This document shows positions 7,671 to 56,827 of a stretch of DNA of 64,000 bases, one piece after another. Source of the DNA: Gamaleyavirus AN24P2; the sequence record OZ035810.1. The stretch is one strand, 5' to 3'. The notes beneath the pieces are model-generated. The model saw nothing but the letters and a program-made list of their open reading frames with translations. It had not been told where the DNA came from and ran no database searches. Made by a program: the position numbers and the translations under genes. Each line of letters opens with the position of its first letter. The first letter of the stretch is position 1.

Positions 7671-7677
7671 GGTGATT

Positions 7678-7932
7678 ATGGCTCTAAAATTTACTTTTGA
7701 CTTTAATGGTATTATGGTAACCGATGGGGTACTTACTGTAAGCAAACCCATGATTGATGAGGAATCTGGAACAATTACCTTTGGGCTACTGTTCCAAGCA
7801 ACTAGTGCAGACCCGCTACTGAAATCAGTAACGCTTAGTTGTCCCTATGATCCTTTTGGAGCTGACCCATTCACTCAGGCATACGCCTATATAAAATCCT
7901 TACCAGATTATAAATCTGCCGAGGAAATTTAA
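7678..7932 (+). CDS. small hypothetical protein downstream of tailspike (possible assembly chaperone)
   Basis: ORF-track start 7672 is GTG; ATG at 7678 has a GAGGTG RBS. Followed by a terminator. Confidence 0.35.
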   Translation: MALKFTFDFNGIMVTDGVLTVSKPMIDEESGTITFGLLFQATSADPLLKSVTLSCPYDPFGADPFTQAYAYIKSLPDYKSAEEI

Positions 7933-7958
7933 TAAAAGCCCCTTACGGGGCTTTTCTT
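7933..7958 (+). terminator. rho-independent terminator
   Basis: AAAAGCCCC-TTAC-GGGGCTTTT hairpin followed by CTTCT. Confidence 0.6.
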
Positions 7959-8054
7959 CTACCCCACTCTACTATAAATAAGTATTATCTTTTGGTCAGA
8001 CTCTTCTGATACGTCCCAAATGGGTATCATTAAAGAAACATTAAGGACTTTCTC

Positions 8055-8387
8055 ATGAGCGATGAATCGACTTCGGTTCTTCTTGCCCGATTGGAGGAAA
8101 GACTGGAAACATTATTTAAGAACCAAGAAAAGGAGGAGCGTTCCAAAGATAAACTGGAACAAACTCTATCTGGTTTAAGGGAGTCTGTTCAGCAAATGGA
8201 AGGCAGACTTAAAAACGTAGAGGATAGCCTTGCTAAGTCTGAACCTACTATCGAAGAGTTTATTACCATAAAGCATAAAGTTGCTGGTGCTGGAATTTTT
8301 GGTAAGTGGGTATGGGCTATAGCAGGTGCAATCATTGGTGTATTGGCTGCTGCAAGACGGGAGATATTCGCATGGTTCGCAGGTTAA
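8055..8387 (+). CDS. membrane-anchored coiled-coil protein (first gene of lysis region)
   Basis: 110 aa; N-terminal charged helical region and C-terminal hydrophobic segment WVWAIAGAIIGVLAAA; AAGGA RBS. Confidence 0.4.
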   Translation: MSDESTSVLLARLEERLETLFKNQEKEERSKDKLEQTLSGLRESVQQMEGRLKNVEDSLAKSEPTIEEFITIKHKVAGAGIFGKWVWAIAGAIIGVLAAARREIFAWFAG

Positions 8388-8632
8388 AAAGAAAGATAGA
8401 GCTAGTACCTAATTGGAAGAAGTCCTGGAAATGGGCATCTGTTCAGATTAGTACGTTTGGTTTAATTCTGTTTTCTGCTGTAGATATCATCCAACCAATG
8501 GTGACGGGACTACCTCGTCACATCCTGGAAGATATTCCTCATGGTTCCAATATTGCAATCGCACTGTTTGCCTTAAACATCATGGGTAGATTGATACGAT
8601 TCCGTCCAAAGGAAGATTCACATGAAAGCTAA
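8372..8632 (+). CDS. putative holin (two transmembrane segments)
   Basis: In-frame ATG at 8372 inside ORF 8306..8632; two hydrophobic stretches (ISTFGLILFSAVDII and IAIALFALNIMG); immediately upstream of and overlapping the endolysin. Confidence 0.4.
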   Translation: MVRRLKRKIELVPNWKKSWKWASVQISTFGLILFSAVDIIQPMVTGLPRHILEDIPHGSNIAIALFALNIMGRLIRFRPKEDSHES

Positions 8633-9257
8633 ACAGAAACTTGCTGCAAAAGGTGGTGCAGTGGGAGGGGTTATCGCTGCTATTCTGGGGGCAGTGTTTT
8701 ATATGGAAGGAGGGTATGTAAATAATCCTCGTGACCCAGGTGGTGAAACTAATCATGGTATTACCCAAGCTGTAGCTAAATCCCATAAAGAAGTTCTGGC
8801 TACTGAGTATGGTTGGGATGGTTCTATGAAGGGTTTATCTAAAGAGATGGCTGCTGAGATATACATTGATGACTACGTACTTAAGCCTAATTTCGTAGCC
8901 TTCGCTAATATATCTCCTGCTATAACACACAAACTGGTTGATGCTGGTGTTAACACAGGTGTAACCAGACCAGCTAAGTGGTTGCAGCAATCCCTCAATG
9001 AAATGTCCCGTAATGGCAAAGACTACCCTAAAATACAGGTTGATGGTAAAGTCGGTGCAAGTACTGTTAATGCATATAAAGCATTACAGAAAAAGCGAGG
9101 CAAAGTTGCAGCATGTCGGGTAATGATTAAGTTACTTGATGCTAAACAACTGAACCATTACACCTCATTAAACATGCCGGATTTTACGTATGGTTGGGTA
9201 GCTAACCGAATTGGCAATGTGCCACTGGAGGCATGTAATGAAGATGCTAATCTCTAA
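8622..9257 (+). CDS. endolysin, GH108-type muramidase with C-terminal peptidoglycan-binding region and SAR-like N-terminus
   Basis: Motif EGGYVNNPRDPGGETNHGITQ is the GH108 catalytic signature; preceded by a Gly/Ala-rich weakly hydrophobic stretch GGAVGGVIAAILGAVF. Confidence 0.75.
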   Translation: MKAKQKLAAKGGAVGGVIAAILGAVFYMEGGYVNNPRDPGGETNHGITQAVAKSHKEVLATEYGWDGSMKGLSKEMAAEIYIDDYVLKPNFVAFANISPAITHKLVDAGVNTGVTRPAKWLQQSLNEMSRNGKDYPKIQVDGKVGASTVNAYKALQKKRGKVAACRVMIKLLDAKQLNHYTSLNMPDFTYGWVANRIGNVPLEACNEDANL

Positions 9258-9744
9258 AGGTTGGCCTTATCTTCTGGTGGTGGTCCTTGGGGCCACCATG
9301 TACTTTTGGGGTAATTCCAACGGACAGTCTACTGTTCAAAAGAAGTGGGATGACCAAAAGGCTGAAGACCTAAAGACAACGCAAAAATTGCAGGATAAAT
9401 ACAATGCTCTCCAAAGAAACCATAGTTATGAAGTCGGGATACTCACTTCACGGTTGCAGACGGCTGAAAGTAATTACGCAAGCGAGCTTGCTCGCGTTAG
9501 CAGTGATTACGACAGCCGGATGCAACAGTCTGAAAGACGAGCATCGGTATATAAACGTCAAGCCGAAGCCGGAACCCTTGAGTGCAGAAGTCTTGCAAGC
9601 TATGCAGCCAGACTCGACAACAGTCTTGAAGAAGGCAGACGTTTGGTTGAAGAACTCCAGGCAACTGTTAGACTCCGTGACAACCAACTAATTGAGTTGG
9701 GTAAACAAATTCAGGCTGACCGTAAACTTTTTGAACAGGAATAA
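9238..9744 (+). CDS. i-spanin (Rz-like)
   Basis: ATG at 9238 with GGAGG RBS; N-terminal TM helix [22 protein letters not shown] then a coiled-coil-prone periplasmic domain. Confidence 0.6.
9428..9691 (+). CDS. o-spanin (Rz1-like lipoprotein) embedded in the i-spanin gene in another frame
   Basis: ATG at 9428; signal peptide with RR n-region, hydrophobic [10 protein letters not shown] and lipobox-like TAGC, followed by a Pro-rich segment KPKPEP. Confidence 0.55.
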   Translation: MKSGYSLHGCRRLKVITQASLLALAVITTAGCNSLKDEHRYINVKPKPEPLSAEVLQAMQPDSTTVLKKADVWLKNSRQLLDSVTTN

Positions 9745-21577: not shown

Positions 21578-21640
21578 TACACTGGCTTACTGTAGAGTAA
21601 GCTTCTTATATACGATATAAGTTTGAACAGGAAACATGCT

Positions 21641-24600
21641 ATGTCAACATTTGACCGTCTGGCAGGTTTCGCAGACAGCATCACTAATGCTAAGCAAGTC
21701 GATGTCTCTACTGCTACCTCTCAGAAGCAAGCTGCACAAGGGCAAAGCCCTTTCCAATTAACCCCAGAGAATGCTTACAATCTCCAAACTGGACGAGTAG
21801 GTAATTTAGGAATCGGTGCGTTCGAACCAGGTTCCCTCCAAGCTGATTTCACTCAGGCTTCCCCATTAGAAATTCTTAATAAATATGGTAATGAGCAAGG
21901 TCTACAGATTCTTAATAGCCGAGCTAATGCTGCTGATGCTGTACGTCAGGACTTATCTAAACAACGTACTAACGCAGAAGCATTTGGTGATACTCTTTCT
22001 GGTGTTGGTCTTGGTGTTGCTAATACCCTGGGGGGCATTGCTGCTCTTGGCACAGGTTTGGTCAATGATAATGCCGGGGCATCCATTGCTTCCGGGATGG
22101 ATTGGTTGAATGAAGGTGTGCACAATCTCCAGTCTGATGCACTGAATGTTACCCGTAAGGTTGTTCAGAATCAGAACCAGATTTCTGCTCAAAAGAACCA
22201 GAAACTTTACGAACAAGACATCAAAAATGGGGAGAGCAGCTTGGTTGCCTCCCTGTCTCGCATTGGTCGTGATGCTTTTGATTCTGTTGCTAATACACTT
22301 GATAACGGTATGGCTGCTACTGATGGGCTAAGTGAAGGTGTTGGTTCCCTCTTTACTGGTGGTCCACTTATCCGTGGTGTATCTGCACTCGGCAAAGTAA
22401 TGGTAGGTGGTGATAAAGCCGTTAAGGGTATTACCTTAGCTGCTGAGTTAGGTTCTCGTCCTGCACAGGTTGCATTGTCTGCTGGTCGTGTTGCTGCACC
22501 TGCTATTGCAATTGGTGGTATGGAAGCTGGTGGTGCATACCAACAGACTGCTTCTGAAATCATGAAGATGTCACATCAAGAATTAGCAAGTAAGTCTCCT
22601 GTTTATCAACAACATATTGCTGATGGTTTATCTCCTGATGAAGCTCGTCGTCAGACTGCATCTGAAACAGGTATCATTGCTGCTGGCTTAACTGCTCCGG
22701 TTGCTGCTGCTACTGGTCCACTGGTATCTAAATTTGAACTTAATCCACTTAAGGTAGGTTCACTGGTTGGTGCTGGTTCTAACATGCTGCGTGAAACTGT
22801 AGAAGAAGGTATCCAGTCTGGTACTAGTCAGTTTGCACAGAACAAAGCAATTCAAGGTAATGTAGATGCTAAACGTGACTTGCTTAAAGGTGTTGGTGAA
22901 CAAGCAGGTCTTGGTGCACTTTACGGCTTCGGTAGTGCTGGGGTTGCTCAAGCTCCAGGTGCAACTGTTAAAGCTGTTGGTGCTACTGCTGGTCCAGCCC
23001 TTCGTACTACTTTAGCCGGTGCTTCCCTGGTTGGTAGTGCACTAGCAAAAGCTGCATCTCCTCTTACTAACATCCTGGTTCAACGTGGTGAAGAAGTTGC
23101 TAAACGAAATGAACAAGCATCCCCTGTAGCTGATGCTACGGTTAATGCTGCTGCACAGGAAGCTGCTGCTCAGGCAGAACAAGCACAAGCAACTGTACAG
23201 GAAGCAGTAGATGCAATGGATATTTCTCCGGAAGAGAAAGCTGCTGCTACCCAGTATGCTGCTGACTTAACTCAGGCAATGAAGTTTGACCCGGTAGAAT
23301 TGGAACAAACTAACCCAGCAATCCGTGAAGCTGTTTCTGGTTCCACTAACCGTGTTGAAGCTATTCAGAAGATGGCTGACCTGGTTAATACTGCTGAGGA
23401 TCCTAACGTTCAAATGGAAGCTGCAATCCAGATGTATGACAATATCATGTCTATGGATAGCTTCATTAACCGTGACCCGGGTGCTCTGGCTAATCTGGAA
23501 CAAGGTTCTCCTGCTGCTGCGATTGTAGACCAGTTCTCCGGTCTGATGGCTAACGTACAGAATACTCCGAAGGTACTCCGTGCATTTCGTGCCATCCATT
23601 CCATGATTCAGGAACAGGCTGAAGCGGGTAAATTGAAAGCTACTGAAGAAGCTAACCAAGCTCAGGCAAACAACATTGCTATGGCTGCTGATGTGTCTCC
23701 AGAAGTTCTGGATGTAGAATCAGTGAACATGGTTCTGAAGCACGCAAGTGAAGGTAAGATTACATTAGGGAATCGTCAGCGTGCTGCCCTGCAATCTGCT
23801 GCTGCTCTATTGCAAGGAGCACGAGAATTTGACGCTAAAGCAGAAGAACTGGGCTTACGTCCTCAAGACATTGTTAGTAAACAAATTAAAACCGACGAAT
23901 CTCGTTCTAATGAAGGCCAGTACTCTGCGTTGCAACATGCTAAACGCATTCGTTCTGCGTACAACTCTGGTAACTTCGATTTGGCTTCCGCTTATCTCGA
24001 CGACTTTATGAAGTTCGCCCAGCACATGCAGAATAAGGTCGGAGCGTTGAATGAGCATTTGATTTCTGGGAATGCGGATAAGAATAAGTCTGTCCATTAT
24101 CAGGCTCTTACTCCCTCCCGTGAATGGGTACGTAGTCGTACTGGCCTCGGTGTCAATCCGTATGATACCAAGTCTGTTAAGTTTGCCCAGCAAGTAGGAC
24201 TGGAGGCCAAAACCGTAGCTGATATTGTTAATGCACTTGCTACGGCTTACCCGGAGCTTAATGTTTCTCATGTTAAAGTTACTCCATTAGATTCACGTCT
24301 GGACAAGCCTGCTGCCCAGGTGGTTAAAGAGTTCCGTCAGGGCAATCTTGATGCTGCTCAATCCCAACAGACCAATGAACCAGTGAATCAGGTTGATGAA
24401 ACTCCTGTTACAAAACAGGAACCAGTTACCCCTACTGTACAGACTAAACCCTCTGTTAGTGAAGCTGTTAAAACAGAACCTACTATTAAAGAGTCTAAAC
24501 CACAGTCTGTAAAAGAACCTGAGAACCAGTCCGAAAAGCAGGATGCTGCCATCACTAATGAGGATACCACTCAGGAAGTAGCTGAAACTAAAACGGAAAT

Positions 24601-27600
24601 GGAAGCAGTGTTCCCTGTCTATAACAATGACAAGACACCGAGCCAGTTCCTTAAAGCATTTGCTCTGCCGGAAGAACCTAAGACTCGTACCATTGGTTCT
24701 GAATCTCCTTTGACTGATGTTAAGCAAGCACTGTCTTCTGCTGCTCGCTTTGAAGCATTCACACAAAAAGAAAATAACGCTCTCACAAGTGATGTGATGA
24801 AACGTTATCAGGACTTACTGGGCTTTGGTGAAACTCTGAAGACTACTCTTTCTGACCGTCTGGCTAAGTTCCTTGCTAACAAAAATGTTGGTAAACGTTT
24901 TGCAGAAGGTACTGAAGCTAACCGTTGGGTAGGTGGTAAACTGCTGAATATCGTTGAACAAGACGGTGACACCTTTAAGTTCAATGACCAGTTGTTAGAG
25001 ACTGCTGTACTTGCTGGTCTGCAATGGCGACTAACTGCTACACAGAATGCTGCTGTTAAAGACATGAAAGACATAGCTGCTATTACTGGTGTAGAAGCAT
25101 CCCTGTTACCTGAAGGTATTCTGGCTGAATTTGAGAATGCTCAGACTCTGGTTGAAGCTACTAGCTCACTGGCTCAAAAGATTGAATCCTACTGGGGTTT
25201 GAATCGTAATCCTAATGCACCACTGGGCTATACCAAGGGTATCCCAATGGCAATGGCTACAGAGATTCTGTCTTCCCTTATTGAGATGGGTGAAGTTAAA
25301 GAGTCTATGCTGGATGTGTCTGAAATTGACCCAGCCTCCGATAAGACTGTAGGTCTGTACACCATTGAGAAGCTGGATGATAACGATGCCATTAACAATT
25401 TCCCTACTGCTATTGAGGAAGCTGTCCTCGTAGAACCAGAAGAGAAAATGTACTTTGGTGATGATATTCCTTCCGTGGCTCAAACTCAGTTACGTAATCC
25501 GGCTGTTAAGAATACCCCTGAACAGAAAGCTGCTCTTAAAGCAGAACAGGCTACTGAGTTCCGTGTACACATGCCTATGGTTAACTTCTATGAAGCATTA
25601 GGTCGTGACAACATTCTGGAACTGATGGGTGCTGGTACGCTTAATCCTGAACTACTGAACGTAAACACTGCTAAATCACTGGAAGGTAAGAACCTGTCAG
25701 TGTCTATGGCATATGATTCCTTGTTTGGGGTAATCAATCAGGTTCAGGAACAGGAGAATGGACTGGATACTCCTATTCACTATGGTTATAACATGACCCG
25801 TGTAGGTCGTATGCAGATGCTTGGTAAGAATAACCCACAATCCAGTAAGCTGGTGCGTGAAGCAATTCTGCCAACCTTCTCTACTATTGACTTGAGTAAT
25901 GAAAACAGCCAAACGTTCTCAGACTTCCAGTTAGGTCTGGCTCAGGCATTAGGCATCAAGGTACATAACATGTCCCGTGAAGCTATGTCTGAAAAGCTGA
26001 CTAAAGCTCTGGAAGGTAACCTGAAACCTGCTGTTGATATGATGGTTGAGTTTGATAAGTCTGGTCACTTACCAGTTGATGCAGTGGATATTCTGAAGAC
26101 GTCTCTTGGTGGCGATAAATCCTTCGTAGCTCTTATGGCTCTTATGGAATATGCCCGTTACCTGAACAGTGATGACCGTGCCAACTTTAATACCCCACTG
26201 TACGTTGAAGCCGATGGTGTAACTAACGGACCAATCAACGCAATGGTATTAATGACGGGTGGTAAGTTCACTTCAGACTGGGTTAAGAATACTGCTAAAG
26301 GTGGTCTGTTCTTTGGTAAAGCTGGTAAGACTATGAATGAACACCGTTCACAGGATGACAGTGTTGACTTGTATGAAGCATCTACCAACAGTCTGCAACA
26401 AGCTCTGAATGAGTTACGTACTACTTACCGTAACAACGTTCCGGTTATGAACCAGATGAATCATCTCCAAAAGTTAATGGACCTGTTCATTAAAGACTTT
26501 AACCTGAACGAAGACGGTACTCTGGACCTGAAGCGTGGTATCGCTAAAAACCCACTGACTATTACCATCTATGGTTCCGGTGCTCGTGGTATTGCAGGCA
26601 AGATGGTTAGTGCAATTACTGATACCATCTATGAACGCTTCAGTGACGTTCTGCAAGCTCGCGCTGCTGACCCTAGCATTTCCCCAGCTATGGCAATGTT
26701 TGGTAAAGAGGCTGCGTCTGAGACTGATGCTCAGGCTATGCTGGATACTTTCCTTACATCTATGGAAGCACTGACTGGTAATGTTCCAGTTATGCGTAAA
26801 GGTGAGCTGTCTATTCAACAAGTAGAAGGTGCTCTGACTGGTAAGTTAGACCCCCAGAAGTTTACTGTATCTGGTAATGCTCTGAAGAACCTGCAAGAGA
26901 ACATGCTTCACTTGTTCGTTGAACCAATGCGTACTGGTATTCGAAATACTGTTGGTGAAGGTCTAATGCACTCTACTGAGAACTTGCAGAAGGCTACCCA
27001 GATTCAGTCTCTGGTATTGCAAGACATGTTCCAGCAAGCAGTACAGACTAAGCTGGCAGAAAAAGAAAAAGACCCAACATGGAAGAAGGGTGATTTCTTA
27101 ACTCAGAAAGAACTGAACGAAATCCAGGAATCATTGTCTCCACTGGCTCCAATGATTGAGACTGGTTCGCAGACTTTCTACATTGCTGGTAGTGAGAATA
27201 CTGACGTTGCTAACCAAGTACTGGCTACCAACTTAGATGACCGTATGCGTGTGCCAATGAGCATCTATGCTCCTTCACAGGCAGGTGTTGCAGGTATTCC
27301 ATTTATGACCATTGGTACTGGCGATGGCATGATGATGCAGACCCTTTCTACTATGAAAGGTGCTCCGAAGAATACCCTGAAAATCTTTGATGGTATGAAC
27401 ATTGGTATCAATGACATCACTGATGCAAGTCGTAAAGCTAACGAGGCTGTATATACTTCCTGGCAGGGGAATCCTATCAAGAATGTTTATGACTCCTTTG
27501 CTAAGTTCATGAAGAACGTAGACTTCAGCAAACTGTCCGATGAAACTAAACAGGCTATCGCTAAGTCTGCTTTGGAATATGACCAGCGTGAGGGTGCTAC

Positions 27601-30600
27601 TGATGCCTTATTACGTGCAGGTGCTGAACAGATTGAGCGTAACTTGCGTAACATTGCTCTTGGTGTAGATATTCGCCATAAAGTAATGAACCAGGTACAG
27701 ACTACTGTTGACCAGATGGCTGCTGTAGGTGCTCCTTATGTGAACAACGGTAAAATCTCTCTGGAAGGTCTGACTGTAGACCAGCAAGTAGCTAAGCTGA
27801 ACGAATTGTTTGATGCTGAATTAAACAAACGTCGTGATGCAGTACGTGCTGCTAAAGCAGAACCAGTGAAAGAAGTACCAGCAATTGAGCAGGTTGGTCG
27901 TGTACTGAAGTCTGGTGTACGTCTGCTGTCTAATACTGCTATCTCTAAGCTGGCTAAAGAGATGTCTCAGGAACAACAAGCAGTACTGAAAGAAGTACAG
28001 AAATCCCCTGCTGCTAAAGACTACAAGGTTGTCTATGGTACACCTGCCCAACTGGATGCTTACGCTATTGAGAAGAACATTACTCGCCCAGCACCGGAAG
28101 ATATTGAAGCTGCTGAAGCAGGTAATGCATACGGCTGGACTAACTTCGAAGATAAGACCATTTATCTAGTTACCCCTTCCTTAGAAACTCTGGTTCATGA
28201 ATTGGTACATGCTTCTACTTTTGAATCTGTACTGACTCACTATGAAGGTACTCCTAATGAAGCAGTTCAGAACATTGAAGACCTGATGAACCAGTTCCGT
28301 GCTCTGGATGTTAAGGATGAATCTCCGGCAGTACGTGAAGCGTATGCTGATGCACTTAATACCATTAATGGTCACTTGTCCAATGGATTCATTGAGCCAT
28401 CAATGGCTAAAGCTGCTGCACTTAACGAGTACATGGCTTGGGGCTTAACCAACCGTGAACTGATTAGTAAGCAGAAGAAAACCACTGCACTTAAGACTAT
28501 GGTTCAGGCTGTGTATGAAGCAATCAAGCGTCTGGTATTTGGGCGTAAGAAAGCACCAGCTAATGCAGATGATATGTTCTCCGGCTTACTGTTTAACTCT
28601 GCTGTAGTAATGCGAGGACAAGCTCCTACTGCTGCTGTAGCTAAAGATACTACCCTGTTCCATAACAAAGCATACGGTGATAATACTCGTCTGGAAGAAT
28701 TAGGAAAAACCTTCGATAAGTTAATTACTGACTACATTGGTTCAGAACCAGTACAACAAGTAATTCGTAAAGGTAAGTTCTCTGATGCAGTAGTGAATGC
28801 AACTAAAGTAACCCGTGATGTTCAGGCTCATGGCTTCGCTATGAATATGCAGGAACAGCGTCTCTTTACTAACATTGTTGCTGCTCTGGCTACTGAGGCT
28901 GCTATTAACCCTGCTGCTTTGGCTCGTGCACAGGAATACTACACGCATGTTACTAAGAACCTGACTGTTGAAGCATTTATGGCTGACCCAGATAGTACTA
29001 ACCCTGCTGACCGTTATTACGCTCAACAGAAGTTCGATACCATCATGGGTGCTAACAATATTGAGTTTGATGCACAGGGACGTTCTTCCTTACTGCCTAC
29101 CTTTGTTGGGCTGGCAATGGTAAGTGAAGAAGTACGTAAGGTACTGGCTGATATTCCTGTTATGAAAGCAGATAAGCAATCCGGTAATACAGTTGATGCA
29201 ATGCTGACTAACATTGGTACTGCTGCAATGGCTAGTCTGAATGCTCGTGTAGCAGGTGATACCAAAGCTACTAATGTACAGGAAGGTATGGATGCACTGG
29301 CTCAAACAATCATGCAGACTAGCCTTAATGCACAGTCCTTTTATGATTCTGTTGCTACTCCTAGTGGTAATGCTATTGACCGTGCTAACCAGTATCTGGT
29401 GGACTCTATTGATGTATTGTCTACCCGTGCTTTAGAAGGTGCTCGTGAAGTTGCAGCTAATACCAAGAACCCGTTGGTTAAAGGTGCTGCTCATGCTGCA
29501 CAACTGATTGCTGCTATTGCTACAGAGAAGAATGGTGAAATCGTAGCCGAAGGAGTTATGGCTGCAATGAACCAGGGTAAGGTATGGCAACCTTTCCATG
29601 ACCTGGTTAATGACTTAACTGGTCGTACTAAGAGCAATGCTTCTGTGTATGATTTGATTAAGGCAGTTCGTGCACAGGTACAGGCTGACCGTCAACAATT
29701 CCGTGAACATTTGCCTACTACTATCGCATCTAAGTTCAGCCGTAAGCTGACTAATGATGAGTGGAAAGCAATGCACACTGGCATGGGTAAAACTGACTTG
29801 GCTGTCCTGCGTGACACTATGTCTTTGGCTGAAATCCGTGATTTGCTGTCGGACCAAAAGATTGTTGACCGTGAAGTGAATAAGCTGGAAGCAGATTTGC
29901 AGAAGCAAGCTGGACGTAACTGGCCTCTGATTAGTCGTAAATCTAAGCAACTGGCTCAGTTTATGATTAATGGTACAGTTGGTAATAACTTGCTGCGTAA
30001 TGCTACTGCAATTTCTCGTTTACTGGGTGAACGTAAGACTACTAGTTCTATTGTAGATGTAGCTAAACTGGATAAACTGATTACCCTGTATGCACTGGAA
30101 GCAATGAGTAATACTGACCGTGAGATGCTATCTTCACTGGCTCAAACAGAAGTTGATGGGATTGATTTTGCTACTTCTTACCTGGTTGGTCAGCGTAAAG
30201 ATGAAATGGCTAAAGCTAAGTCTGACATGCGTGCAACCCTGAACCAGTACAAAGGTTACATTCCTGGTGAGACTAAACAAGGTGTTAACCTGATTGTTGC
30301 TGAAGACAGTCAATTTGCTGATTTGATTGAGAAGTCCTATGTGCGACTGGGTACTTATCAGGGTAGCTCTGCTAATCGTGGTCCAGCACGTAGTTACTAC
30401 TTTGCACCAGTACAGGCACAGGCTCCATTCTCACAGGGTATCTTACAGAACGTTCGTAATACTGCTGGTGGTGTAGACCTTGGTACAGGCTTTACGATGG
30501 GTACAATGGTAGCTGGTCGTATCACTGACAAGCCTTCCGTAGACCGTATCACTAAAGCACTGGCTCGTGGTGAACGTGGTAATGAACCACTGCTGCCTGT

Positions 30601-31999
30601 GTATGATGACAAAGGTAATGTAGTTGCCTATGAGCAATCTATTGACCCTAACATGCTGAAGCACATTGAGGGTGAGAACCATCTTGCTCGTGCAATTGGT
30701 GTATGGCGTGGTCGTCAGGTAGAGGAAGCTAAGGCCCAGCGTTTCAACGATATGCTGATTGAAAATCTGCATAGCATGTACGAGAACGACATTAAAATGT
30801 CTGCCTCTAATAAGTCCCAGTATGTGAACCTTCTTGGTTCTAAACTGGACCCAGTAACTGCTGATGCTCTTAAACTGATGAACACTGAAACACGTCAGAA
30901 AGCAGAAAGCCTGTTTGGACCCGGTGAACTGTGGGTTCGTCGTGATATGCTGAATGATGCACTAGGCTATCGTGCAGCTTCTGTAGGTGATGCCTGGTCT
31001 GGCAATTCTCGTTGGTCCCCAGAAACACTGGATACCTTCAAGAAAGCTATGTTAGGTGTATTTGGCAACCGTGCTTACAAGTACGTAATGGGTGGTGAGA
31101 ACCTGGTTCAGAACTTAGTTAAAGAAGCTAAGACTCTGATTGTAGTTAAGTCAGTAGTTGTACCTGCTGTTAACTTCTTAGCTAACCTTTACCAGATGGT
31201 TGGTCGTGGTGTACCTGTTAAGAACATTGCTAAGAGCATTCCACAGAAGACTGCTGAGATTAACCAGTACCTGAAATCTCGTCTGCGTCAGGTAGATGCA
31301 GAAGCAGAATTACGAGCAGCTACTAATCCGAACCAGATTCGTAAACTTAAAGCTGAGATTCAGTCCATTACTGATAGTCATAAGCGTATGAGTATCTGGC
31401 CTCTATTAGAAGCTGGGGAGTTCTCTTCAATTGCAGATGCTGGTATTGGACGTGATGATATCCTGATTACTGAGGGTAAACTCCATGAATACATGGATAA
31501 GCTGGCTGATAAGTTACCTAAGTCAGTACGTACTGCTGGTCGTTATGCACTTATCACTAAGGATACTGCTTTGTTCCAGGGTATCCAGAAAACGGTTGAG
31601 TACTCTGACTTTATCGCTAAAGCAATCATCTATGATGACTTAACTCAGCGTAAAGGTAAGACACGTGAAGAAGCACTTGGACGTGTAACTGAAGAGTTCA
31701 TTAACTATGACCGTCTGCCGGGACGTTTCCGTGGCTATATGGAAAGTGTTGGTCTTATGTGGTTCTACAACTTTAAGATTCGTTCTGCAAAAGTTGCAGT
31801 GTCCATGATTCGTAATAACCCGGTCCATGCAGCAATGGCGATGTTGGCTCCAACTCCTACCATGTTTGGTAACGTTGGCTTACCTATTCAGGACAACATC
31901 TTTAGCATTGCTGCTAAGGATAGTCTGGATTACTCTTGGGGCTTTGGACAAGGGCTTCGTGCTCACAACCTGAACCCTTGGATGAACCTGGTAAACTAA
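21641..31999 (+). CDS. virion-encapsidated RNA polymerase (vRNAP, N4 gp50-like)
   Basis: Single uninterrupted ORF of about 3,452 aa from the ATG at 21641 (ORF-track start 21623 is TTG); size and position match N4 vRNAP; AGGAAA RBS. Confidence 0.8.
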   Translation: MSTFDRLAGFADSITNAKQVDVSTATSQKQAAQGQSPFQLTPENAYNLQTGRVGNLGIGAFEPGSLQADFTQASPLEILNKYGNEQGLQILNSRANAADAVRQDLSKQRTNAEAFGDTLSGVGLGVANTLGGIAALGTGLVNDNAGASIASGMDWLNEGVHNLQSDALNVTRKVVQNQNQISAQKNQKLYEQDIKNGESSLVASLSRIGRDAFDSVANTLDNGMAATDGLSEGVGSLFTGGPLIRGVSALGKVMVGGDKAVKGITLAAELGSRPAQVALSAGRVAAPAIAIGGMEAGGAYQQTASEIMKMSHQELASKSPVYQQHIADGLSPDEARRQTASETGIIAAGLTAPVAAATGPLVSKFELNPLKVGSLVGAGSNMLRETVEEGIQSGTSQFAQNKAIQGNVDAKRDLLKGVGEQAGLGALYGFGSAGVAQAPGATVKAVGATAGPALRTTLAGASLVGSALAKAASPLTNILVQRGEEVAKRNEQASPVADATVNAAAQEAAAQAEQAQATVQEAVDAMDISPEEKAAATQYAADLTQAMKFDPVELEQTNPAIREAVSGSTNRVEAIQKMADLVNTAEDPNVQMEAAIQMYDNIMSMDSFINRDPGALANLEQGSPAAAIVDQFSGLMANVQNTPKVLRAFRAIHSMIQEQAEAGKLKATEEANQAQANNIAMAADVSPEVLDVESVNMVLKHASEGKITLGNRQRAALQSAAALLQGAREFDAKAEELGLRPQDIVSKQIKTDESRSNEGQYSALQHAKRIRSAYNSGNFDLASAYLDDFMKFAQHMQNKVGALNEHLISGNADKNKSVHYQALTPSREWVRSRTGLGVNPYDTKSVKFAQQVGLEAKTVADIVNALATAYPELNVSHVKVTPLDSRLDKPAAQVVKEFRQGNLDAAQSQQTNEPVNQVDETPVTKQEPVTPTVQTKPSVSEAVKTEPTIKESKPQSVKEPENQSEKQDAAITNEDTTQEVAETKTEMEAVFPVYNNDKTPSQFLKAFALPEEPKTRTIGSESPLTDVKQALSSAARFEAFTQKENNALTSDVMKRYQDLLGFGETLKTTLSDRLAKFLANKNVGKRFAEGTEANRWVGGKLLNIVEQDGDTFKFNDQLLETAVLAGLQWRLTATQNAAVKDMKDIAAITGVEASLLPEGILAEFENAQTLVEATSSLAQKIESYWGLNRNPNAPLGYTKGIPMAMATEILSSLIEMGEVKESMLDVSEIDPASDKTVGLYTIEKLDDNDAINNFPTAIEEAVLVEPEEKMYFGDDIPSVAQTQLRNPAVKNTPEQKAALKAEQATEFRVHMPMVNFYEALGRDNILELMGAGTLNPELLNVNTAKSLEGKNLSVSMAYDSLFGVINQVQEQENGLDTPIHYGYNMTRVGRMQMLGKNNPQSSKLVREAILPTFSTIDLSNENSQTFSDFQLGLAQALGIKVHNMSREAMSEKLTKALEGNLKPAVDMMVEFDKSGHLPVDAVDILKTSLGGDKSFVALMALMEYARYLNSDDRANFNTPLYVEADGVTNGPINAMVLMTGGKFTSDWVKNTAKGGLFFGKAGKTMNEHRSQDDSVDLYEASTNSLQQALNELRTTYRNNVPVMNQMNHLQKLMDLFIKDFNLNEDGTLDLKRGIAKNPLTITIYGSGARGIAGKMVSAITDTIYERFSDVLQARAADPSISPAMAMFGKEAASETDAQAMLDTFLTSMEALTGNVPVMRKGELSIQQVEGALTGKLDPQKFTVSGNALKNLQENMLHLFVEPMRTGIRNTVGEGLMHSTENLQKATQIQSLVLQDMFQQAVQTKLAEKEKDPTWKKGDFLTQKELNEIQESLSPLAPMIETGSQTFYIAGSENTDVANQVLATNLDDRMRVPMSIYAPSQAGVAGIPFMTIGTGDGMMMQTLSTMKGAPKNTLKIFDGMNIGINDITDASRKANEAVYTSWQGNPIKNVYDSFAKFMKNVDFSKLSDETKQAIAKSALEYDQREGATDALLRAGAEQIERNLRNIALGVDIRHKVMNQVQTTVDQMAAVGAPYVNNGKISLEGLTVDQQVAKLNELFDAELNKRRDAVRAAKAEPVKEVPAIEQVGRVLKSGVRLLSNTAISKLAKEMSQEQQAVLKEVQKSPAAKDYKVVYGTPAQLDAYAIEKNITRPAPEDIEAAEAGNAYGWTNFEDKTIYLVTPSLETLVHELVHASTFESVLTHYEGTPNEAVQNIEDLMNQFRALDVKDESPAVREAYADALNTINGHLSNGFIEPSMAKAAALNEYMAWGLTNRELISKQKKTTALKTMVQAVYEAIKRLVFGRKKAPANADDMFSGLLFNSAVVMRGQAPTAAVAKDTTLFHNKAYGDNTRLEELGKTFDKLITDYIGSEPVQQVIRKGKFSDAVVNATKVTRDVQAHGFAMNMQEQRLFTNIVAALATEAAINPAALARAQEYYTHVTKNLTVEAFMADPDSTNPADRYYAQQKFDTIMGANNIEFDAQGRSSLLPTFVGLAMVSEEVRKVLADIPVMKADKQSGNTVDAMLTNIGTAAMASLNARVAGDTKATNVQEGMDALAQTIMQTSLNAQSFYDSVATPSGNAIDRANQYLVDSIDVLSTRALEGAREVAANTKNPLVKGAAHAAQLIAAIATEKNGEIVAEGVMAAMNQGKVWQPFHDLVNDLTGRTKSNASVYDLIKAVRAQVQADRQQFREHLPTTIASKFSRKLTNDEWKAMHTGMGKTDLAVLRDTMSLAEIRDLLSDQKIVDREVNKLEADLQKQAGRNWPLISRKSKQLAQFMINGTVGNNLLRNATAISRLLGERKTTSSIVDVAKLDKLITLYALEAMSNTDREMLSSLAQTEVDGIDFATSYLVGQRKDEMAKAKSDMRATLNQYKGYIPGETKQGVNLIVAEDSQFADLIEKSYVRLGTYQGSSANRGPARSYYFAPVQAQAPFSQGILQNVRNTAGGVDLGTGFTMGTMVAGRITDKPSVDRITKALARGERGNEPLLPVYDDKGNVVAYEQSIDPNMLKHIEGENHLARAIGVWRGRQVEEAKAQRFNDMLIENLHSMYENDIKMSASNKSQYVNLLGSKLDPVTADALKLMNTETRQKAESLFGPGELWVRRDMLNDALGYRAASVGDAWSGNSRWSPETLDTFKKAMLGVFGNRAYKYVMGGENLVQNLVKEAKTLIVVKSVVVPAVNFLANLYQMVGRGVPVKNIAKSIPQKTAEINQYLKSRLRQVDAEAELRAATNPNQIRKLKAEIQSITDSHKRMSIWPLLEAGEFSSIADAGIGRDDILITEGKLHEYMDKLADKLPKSVRTAGRYALITKDTALFQGIQKTVEYSDFIAKAIIYDDLTQRKGKTREEALGRVTEEFINYDRLPGRFRGYMESVGLMWFYNFKIRSAKVAVSMIRNNPVHAAMAMLAPTPTMFGNVGLPIQDNIFSIAAKDSLDYSWGFGQGLRAHNLNPWMNLVN

Positions 32000-52710: not shown

Positions 52711-53651
52711 TCAGTAATAGTCTCACCGGGGATTAATTTACGGAATTGGATAAAGTGAAGCAGGTTACCTGAGTACAGATTTCCTTCTTTATCCATGGAT
52801 GTAACACCTTGTTCCCATGTAACTGGGTTCATGTTATTTATATACTTCCCACCAATATTCATAGGCGTAGCCTGATGTTCCGTTGGGGAAGCATGAATAG
52901 GTTGGTTTTCCACTAGCTTAGCAAATAAGCCAAGATCTTCTTCTATAGTAGATGGACGTCCCTCAAAGTTGTTATAGGAAGCACGGGCACAGCGTGCAGC
53001 ACTTACTTTGAGAAGTAAGCCATACACTTCTGCACCACTTGGTTCATCACGTGTAATTCGATTGTGTTTGCAGAAATCGTAAGCAGCAAAACGGTCATTA
53101 GCAGTGATATACGGCAAATGCCAGTGTCCTTGTATGAGTTTAGATGGAACACTTTCTTCGTGTGCCTTACGCATTGCCTGAGCCAGTTCACGAATTTCCG
53201 GTTGTGCATCTTTGTGGTCACGTAAGCCATAGAAATTAGCCCAGCTAGTTGAAGTTACCACTACACGGATATGTGTGAAGGGTTCCAGAATACGGTTAAC
53301 AATCTGCTTATGTACTTGTCCACGACGTAGCATTTCTGCATAGGTAGCAACACTGGATGCAGCCTGTTCCCAGATAAAGATTGCATCACTGCGTTGGTCT
53401 TCAGACAGTTCTTCAAATGCTTGCATACCTTTCTGGTTCTTACCCCAGTGACTTGGCATCACTGGTTCATTACGAACTTGTTCGATGAACTTAGCGGTGG
53501 GAATAGCACGACTGCTTGAAGCATTGCGGTTGAATACACGGTGGGTCATAAACTCACTGTGAATGAATCGGGGATAAACCAATTCAAAAGTAGTAATACG
53601 AGTTCCTGTTTCTGGGTGAACGGAATCTGCAATGACAGTTGCCTTAATCAT
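52707..53651 (-). CDS. thyX: flavin-dependent thymidylate synthase (ThyX-like)
   Basis: 314 aa; motif FMTHRVFNRNASSSR resembling the ThyX RHRx7S signature; N-terminus typical of ThyX. Confidence 0.55.
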   Translation of the reverse strand: MIKATVIADSVHPETGTRITTFELVYPRFIHSEFMTHRVFNRNASSSRAIPTAKFIEQVRNEPVMPSHWGKNQKGMQAFEELSEDQRSDAIFIWEQAASSVATYAEMLRRGQVHKQIVNRILEPFTHIRVVVTSTSWANFYGLRDHKDAQPEIRELAQAMRKAHEESVPSKLIQGHWHLPYITANDRFAAYDFCKHNRITRDEPSGAEVYGLLLKVSAARCARASYNNFEGRPSTIEEDLGLFAKLVENQPIHASPTEHQATPMNIGGKYINNMNPVTWEQGVTSMDKEGNLYSGNLLHFIQFRKLIPGETITE

Positions 53652-54094
53652 TAGAATGACCTTAAATAGTTGGTGATACCACTTCTCGTCTCTGTGATTC
53701 TCTTAACCTGAACGTATACCAGCTTAAACTCACTACGAGGTAGTTCTTGTAATACTGCCACACCTTCAGTAAGAGCCACAGAACACGCTACAGCGGTTTC
53801 TTCTTTAAAGGAGTACAAGTCTTCATACATGAGGGCTTCATACTCTTTACGGAGCATACAGAGAGCATGTCTTGCTTTATCACTTACTTCTTGTGAACCA
53901 GCAGACATAGCTAAGCTGTATATGATAAAGACTTGTTCAAAAACAAAGTCCAGTAATCTATCAGGGGTATTAGTACCCATGAATAATTTTGTTGTGTAGG
54001 AACGAGCTTTACGGTTGAGTTCATACTCATCCTCTATGCCTTTATTATAAAGAACAGGATTTCGTTCCCTTTTTCTTAGGAATGGGATACGCAT
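53651..54094 (-). CDS. hypothetical protein
   Basis: 147-aa ORF with overlapping start/stop codons with its neighbours. Confidence 0.35.
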   Translation of the reverse strand: MRIPFLRKRERNPVLYNKGIEDEYELNRKARSYTTKLFMGTNTPDRLLDFVFEQVFIIYSLAMSAGSQEVSDKARHALCMLRKEYEALMYEDLYSFKEETAVACSVALTEGVAVLQELPRSEFKLVYVQVKRITETRSGITNYLRSF

Positions 54095-54480
54095 TAGTAT
54101 TTACTACCTCTTCTATACCAGGGGTAGTGGTGAGTAGTGCTTTTACCCTTGAACAAGTCACGAGTAATGGGATTCTTTCGTAACTGCTCCAGGTATAGGT
54201 ACATGTGACCTTCTCCCGGATATGCCCAGAACTTATCTATGATTTGGTCTACCTTAGATTTCAGATGAGGTTCTGGGGGAATGTATGAGGTGGTATTAAA
54301 AGGTCTTCCAGTAGTCCATCCTTTCTGAACAAGAACCTGCATTGTTGTATAAAGATCTAATTCACTTTCATTCTCTACTTGGTCATGAATAGTTTTACCC
54401 AAAGTAAGCATTGCAGTTTGTTCCAGCTTACTTAAGTCCAGCCCATACAAGATAGACTTACCATTTCGTCTGTTTGACAT
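54094..54480 (-). CDS. hypothetical protein
   Basis: 128-aa ORF, minus strand. Confidence 0.35.
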   Translation of the reverse strand: MSNRRNGKSILYGLDLSKLEQTAMLTLGKTIHDQVENESELDLYTTMQVLVQKGWTTGRPFNTTSYIPPEPHLKSKVDQIIDKFWAYPGEGHMYLYLEQLRKNPITRDLFKGKSTTHHYPWYRRGSKY

Positions 54481-54595
54481 ACGAGTACCTGTAATTAAAA
54501 AAGCCCACGGGTTAGGTGGGCTTGGATTAGGAGAAGGATAAGCAATGAGCTGGAAGCAACTTCCAGAAGTACCCTCTTATGGATACTTCGGTTAG

Positions 54596-54874
54596 TTACT
54601 CTGCTTTACTGCCACCATTGGTTTGAACAACAGTTACATTTGTAACCTGGTTCTGACCTTTGTTGGACAGTGACCAAATCAGTGCCACTACCCAGAATAC
54701 CAGTGACCAGCCTAATACGATATTAAGCACACCAATACCCCACTTAGAGGCATGGCCTCGTGCAAAAGCAATGATAGTAGGGATAAGGTACACAGCTAAT
54801 ACAAATAACAGAACAAGGATTGCTGCTAAAGATTCCATGATGGTTCCTATGTGAGGTTGAGTTAGTTTCTTCAC
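54596..54874 (-). CDS. superinfection-immunity-type membrane protein (Imm-like)
   Basis: 92 aa; YLIPTIIAFARGHASKWGIGVLNIVLGWSLVFWVVALIWSL matches the Imm superinfection-immunity family signature. Confidence 0.55.
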   Translation of the reverse strand: MKKLTQPHIGTIMESLAAILVLLFVLAVYLIPTIIAFARGHASKWGIGVLNIVLGWSLVFWVVALIWSLSNKGQNQVTNVTVVQTNGGSKAE

Positions 54875-54911
54875 AAATAGCCCAACTATGCTGGGCTATT
54901 TAGGCAGCTAC

Positions 54912-55115
54912 TTACTCAGAATCTTTGCTTGCAGGAGCAATGGCTTTTTTCAGGTAACCACGTACAGAACGATAGCTTTCTTTTACTGGCACAGTACGAC
55001 CATCAATCAGATGGATTACAGCACCGACCGATGTTTCATCTACGTCTACTACGTTAGATGCAACAATAGTTTTACGCACGGTACTGCCAACAGGAGTTAC
55101 TTGAAATACTGACAT
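54912..55115 (-). CDS. small hypothetical protein
   Basis: 67-aa ORF, minus strand. Confidence 0.3.
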   Translation of the reverse strand: MSVFQVTPVGSTVRKTIVASNVVDVDETSVGAVIHLIDGRTVPVKESYRSVRGYLKKAIAPASKDSE

Positions 55116-55145
55116 GTTGTTTCCTTAATTAAGCCGGATAGCCTT

Positions 55146-55652
55146 TTATTTTGAAGGTCTAGCGGCTACTGGTTTGTTTTCCTGGTCCTGATACTTGCCA
55201 TTGTAATTAGCAGGTTCCTGAACCAGATGAAATAATACTTGAGCTATCCCAGCACCAGCCGGGATATGCAATTTCTTACGACCATGATAGACCAGTTCGA
55301 GAGTAAGATACCCTTTCCATCCTGGTTCTATTACAGTATTGAACACTGATAATGCACGTCTTGCCCAGGTAGACTTATCGTGAACGATAGCTACACAGGA
55401 CGGGGACATGTTGAACTTCTCAATTGCTGAAGCCAAGGCGAACTTACCGAGATGGCGTGATACTTGATTCCCATCAATGACTTTCACCATTGGAATCAAC
55501 CCAAATAAGCGATAGAAGGTAATATCTTGTTTGATACGAATATCGTAACCAGCTTCACCCAATCCATAGCTTACGCCATGCTCTGATACCTTACGGTCTG
55601 GGACATCCAGCAACTGAGATGAACGGTATAGGGAATTACCATTAACAACCAT
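55146..55652 (-). CDS. dCTP deaminase / dUTPase-superfamily protein
   Basis: 168 aa; motifs GYDIRI, VIEPGWKGYLTLEL and C-terminal YNGKYQDQ resemble the dCTP deaminase signatures. Confidence 0.55.
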   Translation of the reverse strand: MVVNGNSLYRSSQLLDVPDRKVSEHGVSYGLGEAGYDIRIKQDITFYRLFGLIPMVKVIDGNQVSRHLGKFALASAIEKFNMSPSCVAIVHDKSTWARRALSVFNTVIEPGWKGYLTLELVYHGRKKLHIPAGAGIAQVLFHLVQEPANYNGKYQDQENKPVAARPSK

Positions 55653-56827
55653 TATTTCATTCCTTTAGGGATATGAACTACCTCCCCAAAAGGTACGGTA
55701 GCATTGGGATTATTCAGAACACACCAGATGACGGGGATATCAAATGGTAATTCTTCCATTGGATGAACATACATATCAGAGAATATGATTGCAGCGGTTG
55801 GCTTATTCTTAATAATCCAATCGCGTACTGGTTCTAGGTTTGTACCACCCCGACCGGTAATCTTAATTTCCTCAAAAGTATCTTCTTCAGTGATGTCTAT
55901 TTCTTCCTGGATAACATCGTCGAAGGTAATTAGGGACATCTTCTTAGGGTTGAATTGGCTCTTAACGTAGGCAACCTCTGAGTTAAAACGCAGAGAGTCT
56001 GCACTACTAATAGAACCAGATACATCTTCAAAGTAAGCCAAGTGTCGTAAACGTCCTTCATCATCTTCCATGGAAGGTAGGTAGATGTCAGTGTAACGAC
56101 GGTTAGGTCTGGCCCACGTATAATGAGTATCGTCGATGTCAGTAAAGAAGTTCATCAGGACTTCTTGCCAAGGAACTACTGGTTTAAGGAATTGGGTAAT
56201 AACCTCTTCCATACGCCCAGCACCTTTACCGGGCATCATTCCACCAGCCATCTTCTGGCTTTGCATCGCACGTACTACGTTGTTGACGACAGCACCCTGG
56301 GACTGCCCCGAAGAGGGGGATTTCATGTCGCCAGCAAGACCTGCTCCAGCACCCCCTGACGGCTTCTGCCTTTTCTGAGGATTCTTCATCAGGTCATCGT
56401 AGATGTCTTCTTCGACCCATCCTTTATATTGGGGGTCTTTGCAAATGCCTTCATTGATACCAGTGAACTTGTAACCATCTTCTTCTAACTGAAGGTTAAT
56501 GAAGTGGTCACATGCCTGGTTCCAGACTTCTGGGTCACGGCTTCCACGACGAATGCCATGCAGATATGCCACATGCCAGAGTTCGTGCATTAACACTGTT
56601 TCTCTGGCATCTGGACACATCCAGATAAAGAAATCTGGATTGAAATGGAGTTCTATCCCATCAGTACATGCAGTGGGGCAATCCTCACGTTTCCATGAGA
56701 ACTTAAGGCTACATAGTAATGAACCAAAGAACGCAGCAGACTTGCCTAGGAAAGCCTGAGCTTGAATACGATCATATTCGCGCATTAGTTGTTCATCACT
56801 AAGGGAGTGCTGAGGAAATTGGTTCAT
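55652..56827 (-). CDS. vWA-domain protein with N-terminal HExxH metallopeptidase-like motif
   Basis: 391 aa; HELWH motif near the N-terminus; MIDAS-like FEDVSGSIS in the C-terminal half; directly downstream of an AAA+ ATPase. Confidence 0.5.
   Translation of the reverse strand: MNQFPQHSLSDEQLMREYDRIQAQAFLGKSAAFFGSLLCSLKFSWKREDCPTACTDGIELHFNPDFFIWMCPDARETVLMHELWHVAYLHGIRRGSRDPEVWNQACDHFINLQLEEDGYKFTGINEGICKDPQYKGWVEEDIYDDLMKNPQKRQKPSGGAGAGLAGDMKSPSSGQSQGAVVNNVVRAMQSQKMAGGMMPGKGAGRMEEVITQFLKPVVPWQEVLMNFFTDIDDTHYTWARPNRRYTDIYLPSMEDDEGRLRHLAYFEDVSGSISSADSLRFNSEVAYVKSQFNPKKMSLITFDDVIQEEIDITEEDTFEEIKITGRGGTNLEPVRDWIIKNKPTAAIIFSDMYVHPMEELPFDIPVIWCVLNNPNATVPFGEVVHIPKGMK

Follow-up and report, generated by a model that had tools for sequence, protein, structure and literature searches.

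An accessory gene of the superinfection immunity (Imm) family in the N4-like phage Gamaleyavirus AN24P2

Does an N4-like phage carry a gene that shuts a second phage out of the infected cell? The question is raised by a short minus-strand reading frame in Gamaleyavirus AN24P2 (OZ035810.1); the window, that is, the whole stretch of DNA analysed here, is 64,000 nucleotides long, and all AN24P2 positions refer to it. A preliminary description of this DNA had assigned the frame to the Imm family, which in coliphage T4 blocks the entry of DNA from superinfecting phage, and had taken its presence in an N4-like phage to suggest active exclusion of secondary infection. That description was right on the family and plausibly right on the function; the start codon is the only point that we correct. 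The result confirms routine annotation, namely that N4-like coliphages of the G7C type carry an accessory gene of the Imm family and that N4 lacks one.

Genomic context and relatives

The 2.4 kb around the gene (53600-56000) are 100% identical, at the same coordinates, to a further Gamaleyavirus AN24P2 record (OZ035740.1), which is without annotation, and approximately 90% identical to the corresponding region of Bp4, PhAPEC7, IME11, ECBP1 and others (Schitoviridae, Enquatrovirinae, Gamaleyavirus). An ORF of 3458 amino acids (21623-31999, plus strand; TTG is the start given by the ORF finder) is located at the site taken by the virion RNA polymerase gene in Bp4. The identity to Gamaleyavirus AN24P2, together with this large ORF at the virion RNA polymerase position, bears out the N4-like context from which the preliminary description argued.

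The gene itself is already known. In G7C, the type phage, it bears the name gp27.1 and the annotation "immunity to superinfection; similar to Imm of phage JS98," and many Gamaleyavirus records use equivalent names, such as "membrane immunity protein," with a few listing a hypothetical protein. The finding is therefore already public as annotation, and we regard imm as an annotated, lineage-typical accessory gene of the G7C-like phages, of low interest as a discovery.

The Gamaleyavirus orthologues (G7C gp27.1, PhAPEC7_26 and their counterparts in Bp4, IME11, ECBP1 and St11Ph5) are the same gene at the same locus; overall protein identity is 79-99%, with hardly any differences in the first 61 residues, and the genes have the upstream stem-loop and the downstream terminator in common with AN24P2. 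They differ in the tail of the protein, which is of the 80-aa "QNQVTNVTVVQTNGGSKAE" type in AN24P2 and of the 86-aa "SQTTIVNVGSGNQYNV..." type in G7C, and in the gp28-like gene 3′ of imm, which is present in AN24P2 and absent from G7C. N4-like contigs from metagenomes encode an Imm protein of 61-66% identity at the same position, the gene order being DUF2201 protein, dCTP deaminase, 67-aa protein, Imm, gp28-like, gp29-like and ThyX.

A six-frame HMM search of the entire N4 genome revealed no PF14373 ORF (best E 0.11), and nothing is found between N4 gp27 and gp28. Hence imm is an accessory gene, absent from N4 and from the Gamaleyavirus phi G17 and present in close relatives. N4 gp18 (7668-7982 in N4) is annotated as "superinfection exclusion, similar to P22 gp17," N4 itself having no ORF of the Imm family; the two N4-like lineages may carry different exclusion-related accessory genes. 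The PhAPEC7 record notes three small genes after its gp17 homologue as being without similarity to N4.

Reading frame and start codon

The longest possible reading frame at this site (54596..54874, minus strand) begins with GTG and encodes 92 amino acids. The segments YLIPTIIAF, LGW and ALIWSL, quoted in the preliminary description for the ORF at 54596-54874, are all present in it exactly as given. This Imm-family ORF is a real gene under strong purifying selection: dN/dS, taken from the first 61 codons, is 0.03-0.11 when AN24P2 is compared with seven other Gamaleyaviruses, and 0.1-0.2 for AN24P2 imm against the metagenomic N4-like contigs. The features that bear on its start are as follows.

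54596..54838, minus strand: Imm-family gene of 80 codons, closed by TAA; counterpart of G7C gp27.1 and of PhAPEC7_26
54845..54848, minus strand: Shine-Dalgarno sequence AGGA, 6 nt 5′ of the ATG at 54838, read from the sequence
54839..54874, minus strand: 36-nt 5′ extension from GTG to ATG; the GTG is lost in ECBP1 and ShWW44, and is paired in a hairpin

In an alignment of eight Gamaleyavirus sequences the GTG at 54874 is replaced by GAG in ECBP1 and by GCG in ShWW44, and in these two phages there is no replacement in-frame start between the upstream TAG and the ATG. The ATG at 54838 and the AGGA preceding it are, on the other hand, invariant in all eight. The GTG is not preceded by a Shine-Dalgarno sequence, and RNA folding places its G as the final paired base at the foot of a 13-bp stem-loop. 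The ATG is also the annotated start in every annotated relative that we fetched, and T4 Imm and more distant homologues start, with M-E, directly at the first hydrophobic helix. Since the GTG is lost in two relatives, the Shine-Dalgarno sequence and ATG are conserved, and both the relatives' annotated starts and the M-E homologues agree with it, we place the gene at 54596-54838; judged from these comparisons the true start is almost certainly the ATG at 54838 and the product 80 amino acids long, not 92. The 92-aa protein of the preliminary description is accordingly retained as to its frame, which is indeed open from the GTG, and shortened as to its length.

A 92-aa product initiated at GTG, with a 12-residue hydrophilic N-terminal extension (MKKLTQPHIGTI), would draw on that open frame and on the conservation of the extension at the DNA level in most close relatives, but the relatives' alignment and the hairpin fold make it highly improbable and we reject it; the 36 nt most likely represent an untranslated leader rather than coding sequence.

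Family membership and predicted structure

Both forms of the protein match PF14373 (Imm_superinfect) over the full profile (positions 1-42 of 42), with 61.4 bits (E 7.4e-17) for the 92-aa form and 61.9 bits for the 80-aa form; the curated gathering score of this 42-position profile is 27.9 bits. The Pfam search thus upholds the family assignment of the preliminary description with a full-length match at roughly twice the cutoff, and the outcome which that description had named as fatal to its proposal, no profile match to the Imm family, did not occur (61.4 against 27.9 bits). A second match is to PHROG 1039, "immunity to superinfection" (E 3.7e-31). A six-frame HMM scan of the whole window gave a single Imm-family ORF, with an E value of 3.9e-30, the next best being 0.011. 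By these profile scores the AN24P2 protein belongs firmly to the Imm_superinfect family, and the match is not due to chance.

54668..54793, minus strand: PF14373 domain, residues 16-57 of 80, comprising the end of helix 1, the RGHASK loop and helix 2
54599..54664, minus strand: polar C-terminal tail, residues 59-80, of varying length and sequence among relatives

The family signature, made up of the positions conserved in at least 82% of the best 150 family representatives, reads Y-x-x-P-x-x-x-A-x-x-R-x-H ... I-x-x-x-N-x-x-x-G-W-[ST]-x-x-x-W-x-x-x-x-x-W-[SA]. It is complete in AN24P2, with all 13 residues in place (Y17, P20, A24, R27, H29, I35, N39, G43, W44, S45, W49, W55 and S56); among the same 150 representatives the consensus allows T or S at position 45 and S or A at position 56. 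Other resources returned nothing for the protein: there is no NCBIfam model matching it above noise, no PADLOC-DB family at E<=1, and no solved relative in a sequence search of the PDB even at E<=10.

In the hydropathy and charge map the protein starts with M-E, continues as two hydrophobic helices connected through a short basic loop (ARGHASK), and closes with a polar tail. AlphaFold2, run with a 28-sequence alignment, predicts one long helix spanning residues 2-28, another spanning 31-62, and disorder in the tail, with a mean pLDDT of 70.6, a pTM of 0.32 and pLDDT below 50 at residues 67-80. Such a predicted fold fits a membrane helical hairpin and says nothing more. By the positive-inside rule the R/H/K loop would face the cytoplasm, location and topology both being predictions, and from the architecture we infer that the protein resides in the inner membrane. 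Fusions within PF14373 give hints both ways on topology: in representative P0190 the hairpin is preceded by a signal peptide and an N-terminal domain of periplasmic type, whereas the opposite is hinted at by P0114, with a long N-terminus lacking a signal peptide, and by P0090 and P0137, which have C-terminal zinc ribbons.

The proteins of the relatives range from 67 to 86 amino acids and differ only in the tail, which seems to be dispensable or fast-evolving. At least three versions occur in the genus (in proteins of 80, 83 and 86 amino acids), and in Uz-1 and Bp4 a frameshift has shortened the protein to 67. The tail retains a β-strand-like alternating V/I-T/N pattern, as does that of T4 Imm ("QVIII").

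Organization of the imm locus

The genes around imm are collinear with those of N4, with homologues of gp26 (dCTP deaminase, 62% identity), gp27 (35%), gp28 (41%) and gp29 (36%), and imm is situated between the gp27-like and gp28-like genes on the minus strand. Along that strand the gp27-like stop is followed by a stem-loop with TTTGTG, the AGGA leader, imm, another stem-loop, a 7-bp hairpin and a terminator.

54874..54902, minus strand: stem-loop of 13 bp with the loop AUA, then TTTGTG; -17.4 kcal/mol, z-score -3.0
54566..54589, minus strand: stem-loop just 3′ of the imm stop, from RNA folding and alignment with phi G17 and G7C
54550..54566, minus strand: hairpin with a 7-bp stem and 3-nt loop, CTGGAAG-TTG-CTTCCAG, from RNA folding
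54497..54523, minus strand: intrinsic terminator, stem GCCCAC/GTGGGC plus T6, from a terminator scan and folding
54094-54480, minus strand: gp28-like ORF of 128 amino acids, just 3′ of the terminator

The first stem-loop, between the gp27-like stop and imm, delimits the imm cassette on the left; it is conserved in the relatives and annotated as a stem_loop in G7C. The right border is the stem-loop after the imm stop, which ends in CTTCTG in AN24P2 and in CTTGTG in the relatives. Two similar elements of the type "stem-loop + (T)TTGTG" therefore bracket imm; a repeat search did not pick up the hairpins found by folding. In phi G17, a Gamaleyavirus without imm, the 7-bp hairpin follows immediately on a lone stem-loop with TTTGTG. 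Because phi G17 lacks exactly the DNA between the two elements, imm plus one stem-loop can be viewed as a discrete cassette, and on this comparison it looks like one that is gained or lost by recombination between the flanking elements.

The 7-bp hairpin, between imm and the terminator, is kept in all relatives, phi G17 included. In shape it recalls the small hairpin promoters of the N4 virion RNA polymerase; its site is the middle-gene region. The terminator lies 3′ of imm and 5′ of the gp28-like gene, and is annotated as such in PhAPEC7. No convincing σ70 promoter is found directly 5′ of imm, and the scan gave fewer hits than in shuffled controls, so that a private promoter of the host type is not supported. 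The simplest reading is that imm is co-transcribed with the N4-type middle genes, since it shares their strand and their block (homologues of gp24-gp30). The gp28-like ORF, present in AN24P2 and most relatives and missing from G7C and phi G17, marks a second indel hot spot beside imm.

Comparison with T4 Imm and other exclusion proteins

In T4, Imm in the plasma membrane and the periplasmic protein Spackle lead to resistance to secondary infection by T-even phages (PMC7677548; PMC6832632). The note in the T4 record states that Imm mediates a membrane change which leaves the superinfecting DNA in the periplasm; its molecular action is poorly understood (PMC6832632). T4 imm mutants are, in addition, partly impaired both in their resistance to lysis from without and in sustaining lysis inhibition (T4 record note; PMC7677548; PMC6832632).

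The AN24P2 protein is similar to T4 Imm in size and layout (80 and 83 amino acids; M-E, helix, basic loop, helix and polar tail), with a first hydrophobic segment of approximately 25-30 residues in each, and the two proteins are 30% identical over 61 amino acids (BLASTP E 3e-10). T4 Imm, taken from the T4 record, scores 58.2 bits against PF14373 at residues 22-63, compared with 61.9 for AN24P2. Both genes are found among early or middle genes for nucleotide metabolism and replication. The loop reads RGHASK in AN24P2 and RGSKS in T4, and where AN24P2 and most relatives have H29, N39 and G43, T4 Imm has S, S and N. These three departures affect the loop His, the Asn of helix 2 and the Gly of the G-W pair. 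T4 Imm is the only characterised member of PF14373 and yet, by alignment, is atypical at three conserved positions. With some 30% identity, and with T4 Imm lacking these three residues, transfer of function from T4 to AN24P2 is not safe. The carriers differ as well: T4 is a myovirus with a contractile tail and the partner exclusion protein Spackle (gp61.3, periplasmic), whereas AN24P2, an N4-like podovirus, delivers its genome with other machinery.

Other T-even phages provide closer relatives. Imm of the T4-like Salmonella phage KM16 is 51% identical to the AN24P2 protein over 65 amino acids (pairwise E 1e-19), and is only 41% identical to T4 Imm; its gene occupies the position of T4 imm, between DNA polymerase and a gp42-like (dCMP-hydroxymethylase-like) gene. 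The Imm proteins of further Tevenvirinae, T4-like phages of Klebsiella and Citrobacter, are approximately 51-55% identical to that of AN24P2 over the core by tblastn. These orthologues belong to a different phage family and lie in a different genomic neighbourhood from AN24P2 imm.

Proteins of the SieA type are small membrane proteins of the resident or primary phage which stop an incoming genome after adsorption, most of them being expressed from prophages. We take P22 SieA, HK97 gp15 and Sie2009 to be functional analogues of Imm, acting as inner-membrane blocks to DNA entry. No sequence relationship between these proteins and the AN24P2 protein was detected in Pfam, PHROGs or PADLOC, and AN24P2 is virulent.

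Distribution of the family

An HMMER scan of 1.84 billion representative sequences at E<=1e-3 recovered PF14373 members in 8109 clusters at 50% identity. Most of these are stand-alone proteins of 60-90 amino acids; some are fused to zinc ribbons, to SHOCT/DUF4429 or to a second, tandem Imm domain (fusions, tandem domains and signal peptides are represented by P0090, P0137, P0171, P0185, P0190 and P0114). Given the size of the family and the variety of its fusions, the hairpin may represent a membrane module of general use. A literature search on PF14373 returned no relevant study.

The phages carrying a member include T4-like phages of Klebsiella, Citrobacter and Salmonella, siphoviruses, Vibrio phages and mycobacteriophages, and in the AP22-like myoviruses of Acinetobacter the Imm relative is a core gene. 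An imm gene with 57% identity (6001-6219) is present in a 41.6-kb metagenomic phage contig together with DnaB, DUF3310 and a terminase of the Sf6 type. The distribution points to horizontal exchange of imm among unrelated phages, and the contig in particular to its transfer between enterobacterial phages of unrelated types.

Proposed function

We lean towards the view, as moderately likely, that the AN24P2 protein would become inserted in the inner membrane early after infection, barring later-arriving genomes from the cytoplasm. The sequence of events would be the following. Imm would be made within minutes of infection, probably together with the middle genes; early production is probable because imm lies on the middle-gene strand and within the middle-gene block, between the gp27 and gp28 homologues, and ends at the intrinsic terminator. 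The two-helix hairpin would then insert into the inner membrane and, on the model of T4 Imm, change the step at which genomes are delivered through that membrane. A phage adsorbing later would be unable to bring its DNA into the cytoplasm, which would leave the cell to the first one. The exclusion activity, the timing of its expression and the phages against which it is directed (its own kind, T-even phages or both) are what we infer from the gene and its relatives. Searches combining N4-like, G7C or Gamaleyavirus with superinfection yielded no functional study, and no experiment on any N4-like Imm was found in the searchable literature.

Among the arguments against exclusion is the mode of DNA delivery. 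T4 Imm acts on T-even phages, which have contractile tails, whereas an N4-like podovirus delivers its DNA in another way, so that self-exclusion by the T4 mechanism is not obvious. A broader idea, which we consider unlikely, is that the hairpin serves as a general-purpose gatekeeper and not as a device specific to T-even phages; its target would be a host factor, or a conserved step at the inner membrane, needed by very different phages. It draws on the occurrence of nearly the same protein in an N4-like podovirus, in T4-like and AP22-like myoviruses and in the 41.6-kb contig. On this idea Gamaleyavirus Imm might shut out not siblings only but also unrelated phages competing for the same gut hosts, T-even phages among them. 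If this were true, the highly conserved R27, H29, N39 and G43-W44 would mark the contact with the host target; these residues are present in AN24P2 and partly missing in T4 Imm.

The main value of the AN24P2 gene is as a tractable handle on a very large and almost unstudied family. In phi G17, which is without the cassette, and its close relatives, which possess it, there is a natural test case for the function of PF14373, and the contrast could show whether exclusion of the Imm type works on non-contractile phages. There is also a modest practical side: Gamaleyaviruses are used in phage-therapy cocktails, where an exclusion gene could interfere with co-administered phages, for example T-even phages.

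Alternative functions

The name "superinfection immunity" may have been propagated too far. The protein would then be a generic small-membrane-protein module which in AN24P2 does something unrelated to exclusion, for example modulating a host transporter or envelope function to the benefit of replication. The 8109 clusters with their varied fusions lend this some credence, as do the three off-consensus positions in the sole characterised member and the placement of imm among nucleotide-metabolism genes with no recognisable defence or exclusion gene adjoining. The stand-alone copies of 60-90 amino acids, however, recur in many unrelated phages, virulent and temperate, a spread that fits a function in phage-phage competition regardless of the biology of the carrier; moreover, the AN24P2 protein is closer to the syntenic T-even Imm orthologues than these are to T4 Imm. 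On balance we think it improbable that the name misleads in this way.

Doubtful to a greater degree is a role in protecting the membrane or timing lysis in place of a block to DNA entry. The protein would stabilise the inner membrane against the damage done by secondary adsorption ("lysis from without," secondary traumatisation), or would modulate the triggering of the holin. T4 Imm has been said to resemble a holin (PMC6832632), and a two-helix membrane hairpin is also the form of class II holins. This has to be set against the presence of a complete lysis cassette elsewhere in the window.

8109-9741, plus strand (late): N4-type lysis cassette with homologues of gp63 (pinholin), gp62 (holin), gp61 (endolysin) and gp60 (spanin)

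The functions of gp63, gp62, gp61 and gp60 are as defined for N4 (bioRxiv 10.1101/2025.11.12.688109). The cassette is 45 kb from imm and on the opposite strand, and the AN24P2 protein has no match to any holin or antiholin family in Pfam or PHROGs; we therefore rejected the identification of imm as the holin gene. G7C, which is reported to be without lysis inhibition, nevertheless retains imm, and this, with the separate lysis cassette, weakens the case for a protective or lysis-timing role.
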